From Escherichia coli (GTDB lineage Bacteria; Pseudomonadota; Gammaproteobacteria; Enterobacterales; Enterobacteriaceae): a DNA stretch of 64,000 nucleotides. The notes under the pieces are model-generated. The model saw nothing but the letters and a program-made list of their open reading frames with translations. It did no database searches and was not told the origin of the DNA. The position numbers and the translations under genes are program-made. The DNA is taken from the NCBI RefSeq assembly GCF_003790525.1, contig NZ_CP033635.1; one strand, written 5' to 3'. Each line of letters starts with the position of its first letter. Position 1 is the first letter of the stretch. Below, piece after piece: positions 9,083 through 57,945 of this stretch.

Positions 9083-9169
9083 GCCGAGGTGGTGGAATTG
9101 GTAGACACGCTACCTTGAGGTGGTAGTGCCCAATAGGGCTTACGGGTTCAAGTCCCGTCCTCGGTACCA
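9083..9169 (+). tRNA. leuU: tRNA-Leu (long variable arm, CCA-encoded)
   Basis: GCCGAGGTGGTGGAATTGGTAGACACGCTACCTTGAGGTGGTAGTGCCCAATAGGGCTTACGGGTTCAAGTCCCGTCCTCGGTACCA; acceptor stem GCCGAGG/CCTCGGT, T-loop GGTTCAAGTCC; immediately downstream of secG. Confidence 0.9.
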
Positions 9170-12951: not shown

Positions 12952-13028
<77 letters not shown>

Positions 13029-13152
13029 CTTTCCCTTAGAGTCCTTTTTCAAATATACTGTGAAGACTTCGGCCTTCGTAGTGGGATTTGAAAAAATCCT
13101 TCTGGAAAGTGCTCCAGACCGCAGTTGCGGTTATAGGGTTCAGTTATATAAA

Positions 13153-13177
13153 GCCCCGATTTATCGGGGTTTTTTGT
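13153..13177 (+). terminator. Rho-independent terminator/attenuator downstream of metY
   Basis: aaaGCCCCGATttATCGGGGttttttgtt; a second weaker hairpin GGGCtttaGGCCC+T7 at 13196-13217. Confidence 0.6.
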
Positions 13178-13234
13178 TATCTGACTACAGAATAACTGGG
13201 CTTTAGGCCCTTTTTTTATGTCTTGGGGGTGGGC

Positions 13235-17914: not shown

Positions 17915-17988
17915 ATGCGGGATAAGGCGTTTACGCCGCATCCGGCATGGATTGCCTGATGCGACGCTGGCGCGTCTTATCAGGCCAA
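17915..17988. repeat. REP/BIME element (two inverted REP palindromes) in infB-rbfA spacer
   Basis: GCGGGATAAGGCGTTTACGCCGCATCCGGC followed by GCCTGATGCGACGCTGGCGCGTCTTATCAGGCC. Confidence 0.7.
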
Positions 17989-18464: not shown

Positions 18465-19408
18465 TGAGTCGTCCTCGTCGTCGCGGTCGCGACATTAACG
18501 GCGTTTTGTTGCTGGATAAACCGCAGGGGATGTCCAGCAACGATGCGCTGCAAAAAGTGAAACGGATTTATAACGCCAACCGTGCCGGGCATACCGGTGC
18601 GCTGGACCCGCTGGCGACCGGCATGTTGCCGATTTGCCTCGGGGAAGCGACGAAGTTTTCCCAGTATCTGCTGGACTCCGACAAACGCTATCGGGTCATT
18701 GCGCGTCTTGGACAGCGTACCGATACGTCTGATGCCGACGGACAAATCGTTGAAGAACGTCCGGTAACCTTTAGTGCAGAGCAACTGGCGGCGGCACTGG
18801 ATACTTTCCGTGGCGATATCGAACAGATCCCTTCGATGTATTCAGCACTGAAATACCAGGGCAAAAAACTGTACGAATATGCGCGTCAGGGCATTGAAGT
18901 TCCGCGTGAAGCGCGCCCGATTACCGTTTATGAATTGCTGTTTATTCGCCACGAAGGCAATGAGCTGGAGCTGGAAATTCACTGCTCAAAAGGCACTTAT
19001 ATCCGCACCATCATTGATGACCTGGGTGAAAAACTCGGTTGTGGCGCGCATGTTATTTACCTGCGTCGTCTGGCGGTAAGTAAATATCCGGTTGAACGGA
19101 TGGTGACCCTGGAACATCTGCGTGAACTGGTTGAACAAGCCGAACAGCAGGATATTCCAGCCGCGGAGTTACTTGATCCATTACTGATGCCAATGGACAG
19201 TCCAGCTTCGGACTACCCGGTGGTGAATCTTCCGTTAACGTCTTCTGTTTACTTCAAAAATGGTAACCCGGTTCGTACATCCGGTGCGCCGCTGGAAGGA
19301 CTGGTTCGCGTTACAGAAGGTGAGAACGGCAAGTTTATCGGTATGGGCGAAATTGACGATGAAGGCCGCGTCGCGCCTCGTCGCCTGGTGGTTGAATACC
19401 CGGCGTAA
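18464..19408 (+). CDS. truB: tRNA pseudouridine(55) synthase
   Basis: 314-aa [56 protein letters not shown]...; start overlaps rbfA stop (TAATG). Confidence 0.95.
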
Positions 19409-19419
19409 TGTTAACCGTC

Positions 19420-19448
19420 TTGCGATAACAGGTCGCTACGAGTAGAAT
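19420..19448 (+). promoter_or_regulatory. Candidate rpsO promoter
   Basis: TTGCGA-N17-TAGAAT on + strand about 110 nt upstream of rpsO ATG. Confidence 0.4.
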
Positions 19449-19460
19449 ACTGCCGCTTAA

Positions 19461-19826
<366 letters not shown>

Positions 19827-19842
19827 TTCTTGCGAGTTTCAG

Positions 19843-19872
19843 AAAAGGGGGCCTGAGTGGCCCCTTTTTTCA
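19843..19872 (+). terminator. rpsO rho-independent terminator
   Basis: aaaaGGGGGCCtgagtGGCCCCtttttt. Confidence 0.75.
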
Positions 19873-20072
19873 AGCTGACGGCAGCAATTCACTGGAAACT
19901 AATGTATTGTTGCTATGAATGATCTTCCGTTGCAGAGGTTCGCGCGGCTAATGAGAGGCTTTACCCACATTGGGCTGGGTTAGGGTTGTCATTAGTCGCG
20001 AGGATGCGCAGAAGATCGGGTATTAACACCAGTGCCGTAAGGTACTGTCTAAGAAAGAGAAAGGATATTACA
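19873..20072 (+). promoter_or_regulatory. pnp 5' leader/promoter region (site of RNase III-dependent autoregulation in E. coli)
   Basis: 200-nt untranslated spacer between rpsO terminator and pnp UUG start; assignment of function is from established knowledge, exact processing site not mapped here. Confidence 0.45.
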
Positions 20073-22208
20073 TTGCTTAATCCGATCGTTCGTAAATTCC
20101 AGTACGGCCAACACACCGTGACTCTGGAAACCGGCATGATGGCTCGTCAGGCTACTGCCGCTGTTATGGTTAGCATGGATGACACCGCGGTATTCGTTAC
20201 CGTTGTTGGCCAGAAAAAAGCCAAACCAGGTCAGGACTTCTTCCCACTGACCGTTAACTATCAGGAGCGTACCTACGCTGCTGGTCGTATCCCGGGTAGC
20301 TTCTTCCGTCGTGAAGGCCGCCCAAGCGAAGGCGAAACCCTGATCGCGCGTCTGATTGACCGCCCGATTCGCCCGCTGTTCCCGGAAGGCTTCGTCAACG
20401 AAGTTCAGGTTATCGCCACCGTGGTTTCTGTTAACCCGCAAGTTAACCCGGATATCGTCGCGATGATTGGTGCTTCCGCAGCACTGTCTCTGTCTGGTAT
20501 TCCGTTCAATGGTCCGATTGGTGCTGCCCGCGTAGGTTACATCAATGACCAGTACGTACTGAACCCGACTCAGGACGAGCTGAAAGAGAGCAAACTGGAT
20601 CTGGTTGTTGCGGGTACTGAAGCCGCTGTACTGATGGTTGAATCTGAAGCTGAACTGCTGAGCGAAGACCAGATGTTGGGCGCAGTAGTGTTTGGTCATG
20701 AACAACAGCAGGTTGTCATTCAGAACATCAATGAACTGGTGAAAGAAGCCGGTAAACCGCGTTGGGACTGGCAGCCGGAGCCGGTAAACGAAGCGCTGAA
20801 CGCGCGCGTTGCTGCACTGGCTGAAGCTCGTCTGAGCGATGCTTACCGCATCACCGACAAACAAGAGCGTTATGCGCAGGTTGATGTCATCAAATCTGAA
20901 ACCATCGCGACGCTGCTTGCTGAAGATGAAACCCTGGACGAAAACGAACTGGGTGAAATTCTGCACGCTATCGAGAAAAACGTTGTTCGTAGCCGCGTAC
21001 TGGCAGGCGAACCGCGTATCGACGGTCGTGAAAAAGATATGATTCGTGGTCTGGATGTGCGTACTGGCGTGCTGCCGCGTACTCACGGTTCTGCGCTGTT
21101 CACCCGTGGTGAAACTCAGGCGCTGGTTACCGCAACGCTGGGTACTGCACGTGACGCGCAGGTTCTTGATGAACTGATGGGCGAACGTACTGACACCTTC
21201 CTGTTCCACTACAACTTCCCTCCGTACTCCGTAGGCGAAACCGGCATGGTCGGTTCTCCGAAGCGTCGTGAAATTGGTCACGGTCGTCTGGCGAAGCGCG
21301 GCGTGCTGGCAGTCATGCCGGATATGGACAAATTCCCGTACACCGTACGTGTGGTGTCTGAAATCACCGAATCCAACGGTTCTTCTTCTATGGCTTCCGT
21401 GTGCGGCGCGTCTCTGGCGCTGATGGACGCAGGTGTGCCAATCAAAGCTGCCGTTGCGGGTATCGCAATGGGTCTGGTGAAAGAAGGCGACAACTACGTT
21501 GTACTGTCTGACATTTTGGGCGACGAAGATCACCTGGGCGATATGGACTTCAAAGTTGCGGGTTCCCGCGACGGTATCTCTGCATTGCAGATGGATATCA
21601 AAATTGAAGGTATCACCAAAGAGATCATGCAGGTTGCACTGAACCAAGCTAAAGGTGCGCGTCTGCATATCCTGGGCGTAATGGAACAGGCGATCAACGC
21701 GCCGCGCGGCGATATCTCTGAGTTCGCTCCGCGTATCCATACCATCAAGATCAACCCGGACAAGATCAAAGACGTTATCGGTAAAGGCGGTTCTGTTATC
21801 CGTGCTCTGACCGAAGAAACTGGCACCACCATCGAAATCGAAGATGACGGTACTGTGAAAATCGCAGCGACCGACGGCGAGAAAGCGAAACATGCTATTC
21901 GTCGTATCGAAGAGATCACAGCAGAAATCGAAGTGGGCCGCGTCTACAATGGTAAAGTGACCCGTATCGTTGACTTTGGCGCATTTGTTGCCATCGGCGG
22001 CGGTAAAGAAGGTCTGGTACACATCTCTCAGATCGCTGACAAACGCGTTGAGAAAGTGACCGATTACCTGCAGATGGGTCAGGAAGTACCGGTGAAAGTT
22101 CTGGAAGTTGATCGCCAGGGCCGTATCCGTCTGAGCATTAAAGAAGCGACTGAGCAGTCTCAACCTGCTGCAGCACCGGAAGCTCCGGCTGCTGAACAGG
22201 GCGAGTAA
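20073..22208 (+). CDS. pnp: Polynucleotide phosphorylase (PNPase)
   Basis: ORF (M)[30 protein letters not shown]..., C-terminal KH and S1 domains; 711 aa from TTG start at 20073 (SD AAGGA 8 nt upstream); ORF-track start 19986 is an upstream in-frame ATG. Confidence 0.9.

Positions 22209-57568: not shown

Positions 57569-57945
<377 letters not shown>

Follow-up and report, generated by a model that had tools for sequence, protein, structure and literature searches.

The architecture of the pnp leader of Escherichia coli and its regulation are already known and well studied. Both the autoregulation of pnp, which depends on RNase III and PNPase, and the antisense RNA SraG were characterised on K-12 DNA (Fontaine 2016, PMC5029454), and cleavage of the pnp leader RNA by RNase III has been demonstrated both in vitro and in vivo (PMC5029454, PMC5371410). 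In K-12 the enzyme cuts at +39 and +77 from the promoter P2 (Fontaine 2016, PMC5029454), and a cleavage peak was reported at MG1655 position 3311286 (Gordon 2017, PMC5371410). The PNPase-dependent destabilisation of the processed pnp mRNA is taken from the K-12 literature as summarised in Fontaine 2016 (PMC5029454). A similar system is the rnc leader, with which the pnp leader is grouped as a classic example (Gordon 2017, PMC5371410): there too, RNase III cuts a hairpin in the 5'UTR, so that the downstream message loses its protective 5' structure and decays faster. The pnp system differs from rnc in that the sensing is done by a second enzyme: PNPase has to clear away the small 5' strand that remains after the cut. 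In the pnp region, unlike the rnc leader, an antisense RNA and CsrA come on top. For the PNPase step the primary papers are Jarrige 2001, Carzaniga 2009, Carzaniga 2015 and Park 2015, all cited here via Fontaine 2016.

A further autoregulatory 5' leader belongs to the same operon. The S15 translational operator (Rfam RF00114), situated directly upstream, was matched at 19499-19613 with 117.6 bits; it differs from the pnp leader in that it controls rpsO and not pnp, acts via binding of S15 to a pseudoknot and lies outside the interval 19843-20075. The value of the present analysis lies in the correct annotation of a textbook case, the self-control of an exoribonuclease through an RNase III cut, with additional layers of antisense RNA and CsrA.

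The rpsO-pnp interval, its terminator and the P2 promoter

The window (the whole stretch of 64,000 nucleotides that was analysed) is chromosomal E. coli DNA and was compared with K-12 MG1655 over positions 19500-20200. The alignment was gap-free and 699 of 701 bases were identical. The terminator, the P2 region, the long hairpin, the Shine-Dalgarno (SD) sequence and the UUG start are all common to both, and the only two differing bases, 19971 (T for A) and 19973 (G for A), fall in the apical loop of the hairpin that RNase III removes. This stretch is carried, with the annotation truB-rpsO-pnp, by 5425 of the 5426 complete E. coli genomes. The locus is almost certainly the rpsO-pnp intercistronic control region of E. 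coli, with the mechanism already published for it, and none of the observations contradicts this. An initial reading made from the sequence alone had seen here the architecture of RNase III- and PNPase-dependent pnp autoregulation, and the near-identity to the very DNA on which that mechanism was worked out bears this out. The following features frame the interval:

19557..19826, plus strand: rpsO coding sequence (ribosomal protein S15, 89 aa; ORF and RefSeq annotation)
19842..19870, both strands: bidirectional intrinsic terminator, serving rpsO (T1, plus strand) as well as SraG (minus strand) (fold, scan, conservation, Fontaine 2016)
20073..22208, plus strand: pnp coding sequence (polynucleotide phosphorylase, 711 aa; ORF and RefSeq annotation)

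The rpsO stop codon (TAA, 19824-19826) is followed by a spacer of 246 nt (19827-20072). The order rpsO, intrinsic terminator, pnp on one strand was found in the window and also in 80 other species of Enterobacterales, which together with the window constitute the comparative set of 81 genomes used throughout. Anatomy, K-12 identity, fold statistics, covariation, strand asymmetry and UUG conservation were all observed directly in this material. The comparative additions (the strand asymmetry, the universal UUG, a frozen hairpin core, a second hairpin and a patchy SraG promoter) are modest and will not surprise a specialist.

The rpsO terminator, which the sequence-only reading had placed at the head of the pnp leader, is present. 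Its stem GGGGCC/GGCCCC pairs 19848-19853 with 19859-19864 around a UGAGU loop (19854-19858), with a T-tract at 19865-19870 and an A-run at 19843-19846, and the region as a whole folds as a 12-pair stem. The consensus scan reported this terminator on the minus strand only (GGGGCCACTCAGGCCCC then CTTTTCTG); it was missed on the plus strand probably because the T-tract is taken up there in pairing with the A-run. The stem and the T-tract are kept in all 79 species where the terminator was found, the A-rich upstream side in 69 of these. T1 and the terminator of SraG are one bidirectional terminator (Fontaine 2016, PMC5029454).

Transcripts that read through from the rpsO promoter carry the entire 246-nt spacer, and those initiated at P2 start further downstream:

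19880..19914, plus strand: small hairpin GCAGCAAU...AUUGUUGC, in read-through transcripts only (MFE folds)
19915..19918, plus strand: approximate transcription start of the pnp promoter P2 (deduced from literature and fold, not from the sequence itself)

Two routes lead to the P2 start. The pnp RNA 1-234 of Fontaine 2016, with a primer complementary to nt 62-79 of the ORF, places +1 at 19918; the alternative, 19914-19915, follows from the condition that the cuts at +39 and +77 must leave a 2-nt stagger on the fold. The two routes disagree by 3-4 nt (19914/19915 vs 19918), for the start as well as for the cut positions, and the exact P2 start site is a deduced one. The P2 leader (5'UTR) is thus about 155-158 nt long. 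A leader of 200 nt beginning at the rpsO terminator had been proposed from the sequence; that figure is correct for the stretch that separates T-tract and start codon and applies to read-through transcripts only, not to the P2 leader.

A conserved block, TGTATTGTTG (19903-19912), forms the 3' half of the 19880-19914 hairpin. The block occurs in 66 of 81 species, and 47 of 81 have the inverted repeat of the hairpin. As the block lies 7-8 nt before the deduced start, it probably holds the -10 element of P2. The consensus promoter scan did not find P2, and both P2 and the SraG promoter are weak matches to the sigma-70 consensus. An initial proposal for P2 (-35 CTGACG at 19875-19880, -10 ACTAAT at 19898-19903, start at 19911) was dropped, as the length of the Fontaine RNA puts +1 at about 19918. 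The split between P2 and read-through leaders and the two ends of SraG, 20058-19843, make the annotation of the window exact.

The SraG antisense RNA

SraG (PsrO) is reportedly to be credited to Argaman 2001. The sequence-only reading had named such a small RNA on the opposite strand of the rpsO-pnp interval, which proved correct:

19843..20058, minus strand: SraG primary transcript, 216 nt, 5' end 20058 and 3' end 19843 (K-12 b4449, Rfam RF00082, Fontaine 2016)
20065..20096, minus strand: SraG promoter region (sequence reading and hexamer counts)

The K-12 ncRNA sraG (b4449, 3311183..3311398) maps through the gap-free alignment to 20058..19843 on the minus strand, so that position, strand and common terminator are those of K-12. 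The Rfam model RF00082 matched the minus strand over its full length (model positions 1-177 of 177; window positions 19843-20014) with 162.2 bits against a gathering score of 50, and it scored above the gathering score in each of 20 diverse species. RF00082 covers the older 174-177-nt form of the RNA; the 216-nt primary transcript reaches 42 nt further, to 20058. Both ends, which had not been placed in the initial reading, can now be given. The longer form was established by cRT-PCR, which showed a 216-nt SraG starting 42 nt upstream of the old annotation, and this 42-nt 5' extension is needed for repression of pnp (Fontaine 2016, PMC5029454). SraG was detected by Northern blots and cRT-PCR in K-12 derivatives only (same source). 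It is complementary to the P2 leader over approximately 19918-20058.

The DNA at 20058-20096 is identical to that of K-12, where the SraG start was mapped. Here a putative -10 element, TGTAAT/TAATAT, can be read in the stretch that separates the SD from the UUG (reverse complement of 20065-20072), and a -35-like TTTACG as the reverse complement of 20091-20096, within pnp codons 7-8. A -10 mutation eliminates the 216-nt SraG (Fontaine 2016, PMC5029454). The consensus promoter scan around 20058-20096 did not find the SraG promoter. Across the comparative set, a recognisable -10 (TAATAT or AATAAT) stands at this position in only about 25 of 81 species. Because the promoter is only patchily recognisable, SraG may be expressed in a subset of genera only, and many of the Rfam SraG matches may simply mirror the pnp leader. 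A short ORF in SraG (AUG and 13 further codons) was dismissed; it lacks an SD and sits in the apical region, which is variable.

The long leader hairpin and its conservation

The dominant structure of the leader is the hairpin in which the RNase III sites of K-12 fall:

~19921..20017, plus strand: long imperfect hairpin of ~97 nt, RNase III substrate (MFE folds, covariance model, covariation)
~19953..19957, plus strand: RNase III cut in the 5' arm (RIII1, +39 from P2; Fontaine 2016 and Gordon 2017; approximate)
~19991..19995, plus strand: RNase III cut in the 3' arm (RIII2, +77 from P2), start of the processed pnp mRNA (Fontaine 2016 and pair table; approximate)

The interval 19873-20072, in which a long RNase III hairpin had been expected, folded with an MFE of -71.8 kcal/mol against -53.2 +/- 4.0 for its shuffles (z -4.63), and 0 of 200 shuffles were as stable; the hairpin was located at 19921-20017. 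A second leader fold gave z -4.66, again with 0 of 200 shuffles as stable. The apical loop spans 19968-19975 and the invariant core pairs 19939-19961 with 19982-20004. The MG1655 cleavage peak at 3311286 maps to window position 19955, inside the hairpin; the cut positions given above are approximate, deduced ones.

Plain MAFFT alignment with RNAalifold recovered the invariant core only, because the variable helices were misaligned, and it was replaced by realignment to a covariance model. The first model alignment mixed plus-strand matches with weaker mirror matches on the minus strand, and the search was rerun at E <= 1e-10 on the plus strand only. Among 79 Enterobacterales sequences, 95.2% of the cells are paired, compared with 31-56% when the partners are slid, and in 19 of 37 pairs both bases have changed; among 500 shuffles, none attained any of these measures. 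The hairpin tolerates insertions of ~55-60 nt nowhere but in its apical part, the one taken off by RNase III (L060, L079).

These data describe an RNA structure of the pnp message, and several other readings of its conservation were weighed. The hairpin could be conserved mainly as a structure of SraG, with the pnp leader hairpin as a by-product: RF00082 does model the region on the minus strand, with the scores given above, and RNase III also cleaves SraG by itself, at the mirror positions (Fontaine 2016, PMC5029454). The comparison of the two strands, however, points to pnp. In every one of the 81 genomes the pnp-sense strand forms the more stable hairpin of the two, with a mean advantage of 18 kcal/mol over the minus strand, and the conserved G.U pairs, one of which (G19947.U19996) is invariant, become C-A mismatches in SraG. 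Moreover, the covariance model matches all 81 genomes on the plus strand with 60-107 bits, whereas the mirror strand reaches 22-41 bits, and the hairpin is universal while the SraG -10 is recognisable in the minority of species noted above. Conservation for the sake of SraG is already disfavoured and appears very improbable.

An asymmetry based on G.U pairs would be meaningless for double-stranded DNA, which also bears on the proposal that the conservation reflects a DNA-level element (a palindromic protein site or the architecture of the P2 and SraG promoters) rather than RNA structure. The central 20-bp core is nearly invariant in sequence, with 11 of 20 pairs that never vary, which exceeds the needs of pairing alone, and the region does sit between two promoters. 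The flanking helices nevertheless covary, with changes on both sides in 7 of 7 pairs of helix 1, 4 of 5 of helix 2 and 5 of 5 of helix 4, and cleavage by RNase III has been demonstrated on the leader RNA itself; we regard a DNA element as extremely improbable. As for a role in attenuating or terminating transcription between rpsO and pnp, in place of one in processing, a very stable intercistronic stem-loop (-47.6 kcal/mol over 109 nt) would fit such a role, but this one has no T-tract (the sequence past 20017 is GGGTATTAAC), the terminator scan reported none at the hairpin, and the real T-tract terminator stands 50 nt upstream, at 19848-19870. Hence this last possibility deserves practically no credence. 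The hairpin is best described as the RNase III processing site of the pnp leader.

The ribosome binding region and the proposed control circuit

Between the long hairpin and the coding sequence, the leader carries the elements through which processing would act on translation:

20000..20007, plus strand: GAGGAUGC, near-invariant GGA motif in the 3' arm of the long hairpin, candidate upstream CsrA site (alignment columns)
20030..20047, plus strand: second small hairpin, downstream of the RNase III hairpin and upstream of the RBS, 7 bp with a GUAA loop (fold)
20061..20065, plus strand: Shine-Dalgarno AAGGA, also a GGA motif (SD-overlapping CsrA site; conservation, Fontaine 2016)
20073..20075, plus strand: pnp start codon TTG (UUG; RefSeq CDS start, conservation, toeprint)

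That pnp starts with TTG at 20073, as originally read from the sequence, agrees with the RefSeq start in an identical strain and in K-12, and TTG is the start in 80 of 80 other Enterobacterales species. A toeprint was obtained 15 nt from the pnp UUG (Fontaine 2016, PMC5029454). We infer that this weak codon makes initiation sensitive to competition. The pnp ORF can be extended to a TTG at 19986; this is merely the first in-frame start after a stop and falls within the hairpin, and both the annotation and the toeprint place the start elsewhere.

The AAGGA columns and the columns G101 A102 G103 G104 A105 T106 G107 are invariant or nearly so in the 81 sequences. The near-invariance of the GGA motifs at 20002-20004 and 20063-20065 speaks to the presence of the motifs only. 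Binding of CsrA to the pnp leader is described in Park 2015 as cited in Fontaine 2016 (PMC5029454), and one CsrA site overlaps the SD (Fontaine 2016, PMC5029454). The GAGGAUGC motif would be the upstream CsrA site, presumably exposed only once the 5' strand of the duplex has been removed. In one later study the PNPase level was unchanged in csrA mutants under the conditions used (PMC8151843), and the CsrA step may therefore be conditional.

The cleavages, the PNPase dependence and the effects of CsrA and SraG are taken over for the window from the literature on identical sequence, and the published circuit would run here as follows. The pnp mRNA would come from two sources, read-through of T1 and the internal P2, and both transcripts would bear the ~97-nt hairpin. 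RNase III would cut both arms of this hairpin (~19953-19957 and ~19991-19995) and take off its top, leaving a duplex that would still shield the message. PNPase would then degrade the small fragment from the fragment's 3' end. The freed 5' end would become accessible to RNase E and the exposed GGA motifs (~20002-20004; 20063-20065 in the SD) to CsrA; UUG-initiated translation would drop and the mRNA would decay, so that PNPase would limit its own synthesis. On the other strand, SraG would be made from a promoter overlapping the translation start region of pnp and would end at the common terminator. Its pairing with the leader to within 3 nt of the SD would block 30S binding, create a new RNase III site and lower pnp expression.

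The frozen core and the conserved second hairpin might also be places where a further factor, besides RNase III, recognises the RNA in a sequence-specific way (PNPase, S1, or CsrA on the processed duplex), with the second hairpin as a third element that sets the stability of the processed mRNA or access of the ribosome. This suggestion is a tentative one, and we think it rather unlikely.

As a separate observation, no description of the frozen core (with its G.U pair and covarying flanks across 81 genomes) or of the conserved second hairpin was found in the accessible literature. Of the 81 species, 79 have a hairpin at the 20030-20047 position; its sequence differs greatly among them, and the mean z is -2.7.

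The terminator, leader and UUG start of the rpsO-pnp interval

Of 5426 complete E. coli genomes, 5425 carry the region 19400-20400, annotated truB, rpsO and pnp, with an identity of at least 99% in nearly every case. Between 19500 and 20200 it aligns without gaps to K-12 MG1655, with only two mismatches (19971, T for A; 19973, G for A), both inside the 8-nt loop at the tip of the RNase III hairpin; the window is thus not K-12 DNA. Because the alignment contains no gaps, K-12 coordinates could be converted exactly (window = 20073 + (3311168 - K-12 position)). The rpsO-pnp spacer spans 246 nt (19827-20072), and the following features lie in and next to it.

19557-19826: rpsO
19843-19846: four A, upstream flank of the rpsO terminator
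19848-19853 with 19859-19864: rpsO terminator stem GGGGCC/GGCCCC, loop UGAGU
19865-19870: six T, downstream flank of the rpsO terminator
20030-20047 (+): small second hairpin, 7 bp with a GUAA loop, between the RNase III hairpin and the Shine-Dalgarno (SD) sequence

A consensus scan reported the terminator on the minus strand only. In a 284-nt fold its A-run and T-run are paired, giving a 12-pair stem, and this pairing probably accounts for the one-sided call. The rpsO terminator and that of SraG, a small RNA antisense to the interval, are one bidirectional terminator (Fontaine et al. 2016, PMC5029454). For comparison, one genome was scanned for each species, which gave 80 other loci (81 with the window) across the Enterobacterales, ranging from Escherichia albertii to Yersinia, Serratia, Xenorhabdus, Pantoea and Dickeya. 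All 79 species in which the terminator was located keep its stem and T-tract, and in 69 of the 79 the upstream flank is rich in A. In Erwiniaceae (pnp loci L023, L028, L033, L037, L039-L047 and other Erwinia, Pantoea and Tatumella loci) the terminator lies about 83-88 nt past the rpsO stop rather than about 20 nt, with some 65 nt of additional sequence in between. An S15 leader (Rfam RF00114, 117.6 bits, 19499-19613, plus strand) lies just upstream of and overlaps the rpsO start, and is also present in all 20 other species scanned. Through this leader, a translational operator, S15 represses its own mRNA.

The pnp start is the TTG at 20073-20075, seven bases past AAGGAT. The sequence-only reading had proposed this codon; it is the RefSeq start in an identical strain and in K-12 (CDS 3309033..3311168, 711 aa), and TTG is used in all 80 other loci.

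Two classes of pnp leader

Two promoters feed pnp: P1, that of rpsO, by read-through of the rpsO terminator (T1), and an internal promoter, P2, downstream of T1 (Fontaine 2016, PMC5029454). The pnp RNA used in vitro covers positions 1 (the P2 start) to 234, and the primer that sets its end is complementary to nucleotides 62-79 of the ORF (PMC5029454); this places the P2 start at about 19918 with a 5'UTR of 155 nt. RNase III cuts 39 and 77 nt from the P2 start (Fontaine 2016, PMC5029454); if the cuts are taken to be staggered by 2 nt, the hairpin's pair table would place them after 19953 and 19991, and P2 would start at 19914-19915. The two placements differ by 3-4 nt. An independent RNA-seq study placed the RNase III site of pnp at position 3311286 of MG1655 (Gordon 2017, PMC5371410), equivalent to 19955. 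At the expected -10 position lies a highly conserved block, TGTATTGTTG (19903-19912), found in 66 of the 81 species; this region is the probable P2 -10 element.

Since leaders arise both by T1 read-through and from P2, the 200-nt leader beginning at the terminator, as originally described, holds for read-through transcripts, the T-tract ending at 19870, 202 nt ahead of the UUG. It does not hold for P2 transcripts, which start at about 19914-19918.

An inverted repeat, GCAGCAAT...ATTGTTGC (19880-19914, plus strand), present in 47/81 species, forms a hairpin in read-through transcripts only and overlaps the probable P2 -10; it could influence read-through RNA processing or P2 activity. In three pnp loci (L026, L056 and L080) the spacer is enlarged to 353-398 nt by extra sequence between terminator and hairpin, which replaces the conserved P2 block. 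The Yersinia pestis spacer carries an insertion element (Fontaine 2016, PMC5029454).

The RNase III hairpin and the strand it serves

The sequence-only reading had called for a long RNase III hairpin in 19873-20072. This segment folds at -71.8 kcal/mol versus -53.2 +/- 4.0 for 200 dinucleotide shuffles (z -4.63), none of which was as stable, and the fold is dominated by an imperfect hairpin (19921-20017, loop 19968-19975). The observation of terminator, leader and UUG is thus confirmed well beyond chance. A covariance model built from the hairpin matched every genome on the plus strand (60-107 bits), and its mirror image on the minus strand reached only 22-41 bits. In a model-guided alignment of 79 sequences, standard pairs occupied 95.2% of cells versus 31-56% with partners slid by 1-3 columns. 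Both sides had changed in 19 of 37 pairs and 0/500 shuffles reached any of five measures, a large margin even though an alignment fitted to the structure somewhat favours covariation. Covariation is free in the basal helices and the apical helix; of the 20 pairs in the central helix, 11 show no variation, among them an invariant G.U (G19947.U19996). Apical insertions of about 55-60 nt occur in Dickeya oryzae (L060:985-1148) and Xenorhabdus budapestensis (L079:984-1152); they lie in the part that RNase III removes, and the hairpin base and invariant core are intact.

Conservation of such a structure could reflect a DNA palindrome, but the covariation speaks against a palindrome, and so does the asymmetry of the G.U pairs of the mRNA strand, which in SraG become C-A mismatches. 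The hairpin could also exist for SraG; against this stands the strand asymmetry, the pnp-sense hairpin being the more stable in 81/81 species folded on both strands (mean -47.9 versus -29.8 kcal/mol; E. coli, -47.6 versus -34.9). An attenuator is likewise disfavoured, as no T-tract follows the hairpin. The uniform pnp-sense stability and the C-A mismatches therefore indicate that the structure is maintained for the pnp leader, and that SraG inherits a weaker mirror of it.

Farther along the leader, two stretches that contain GGA are invariant or nearly so, GAGGATGC (20000-20007, 3' arm) and the SD AAGGA. One CsrA site overlaps the SD (Fontaine 2016, PMC5029454), and GGA 20002-20004 is a candidate for the other. 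The second hairpin has a counterpart in 79/81 species, with unrelated sequences (mean z -2.7; 57/81 below -2); no stated function for it was found in the rpsO-pnp literature examined.

SraG and the autoregulatory circuit

SraG, which the sequence-only reading had put on the opposite strand without placing its ends, is indeed encoded there: RF00082 matches the minus strand at 19843-20014 (162.2 bits, gathering score 50, full model covered), and K-12 sraG (b4449, 3311183..3311398) maps to a 216-nt RNA with its 5' end at 20058 and 3' end at 19843. A 216-nt primary transcript was mapped by circular RT-PCR, with a start 42 nt upstream of the older annotation, and was lost when the -10 was mutated (Fontaine et al. 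2016, PMC5029454). The older start corresponds to 20016, hence the end of the Rfam match at 20014. From the 5' end it is 3 nt to the SD and 15 nt to the UUG, in agreement with reported pairing near the SD without overlapping it (PMC5029454), and the SraG promoter thus coincides with the region where pnp translation starts. From its sequence, the putative -10 (TGTAAT/TAATAT) would be the reverse complement of 20065-20072, between SD and UUG, and the -35-like TTTACG that of 20091-20096, within pnp codons 7-8. A clear -10 (TAATAT or AATAAT) occurs at this position in only about 25 of the 81 species. Rfam SraG matches exceed the gathering score in 20/20 diverse species; they show the mirror image of the leader plus the terminator, not expression of the RNA.

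The published mechanism best explains the locus. RNase III would cleave both hairpin arms and take off the top, and PNPase would degrade the small fragment left; RNase E would then attack near the 5' end of the coding sequence and CsrA could bind and block translation, so that PNPase would limit its own synthesis (Fontaine 2016, PMC5029454). Pairing of SraG with the leader would act on the same mRNA: 30S binding was prevented in toeprint assays, a new RNase III cut was induced and pnp mRNA was lowered (Fontaine 2016, PMC5029454). In csrA mutants, the PNPase level was unchanged under the conditions of one later report (PMC8151843). Fold and covariation directly support the RNA-structure part of the proposed autoregulatory architecture, and the enzymatic steps would carry over from literature on the identical sequence. 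The interpretation is thus supported with two refinements, namely two leader classes and a shared, bidirectional terminator. The rpsO-pnp system is already known in detail; the small additions made here are exact window coordinates for both SraG ends, a UUG start in every species, the hairpin strand bias, a core frozen in sequence, conservation of the second hairpin and the patchy occurrence of the SraG promoter.

Elsewhere in the window, upstream of truB, naRNA4 (RF02564), a REP-derived nucleoid-associated RNA family, matches at 17916-17986 (plus strand, 77.2 bits). The whole-window Rfam scan also returned 2308-2429, 9083-9166, 12952-13025, 13117-13217 and 57569-57945, all on the plus strand; the families, as listed, are a greA leader, two tRNAs, a rimP leader and RNase P RNA, as expected for this part of the E. 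coli chromosome.
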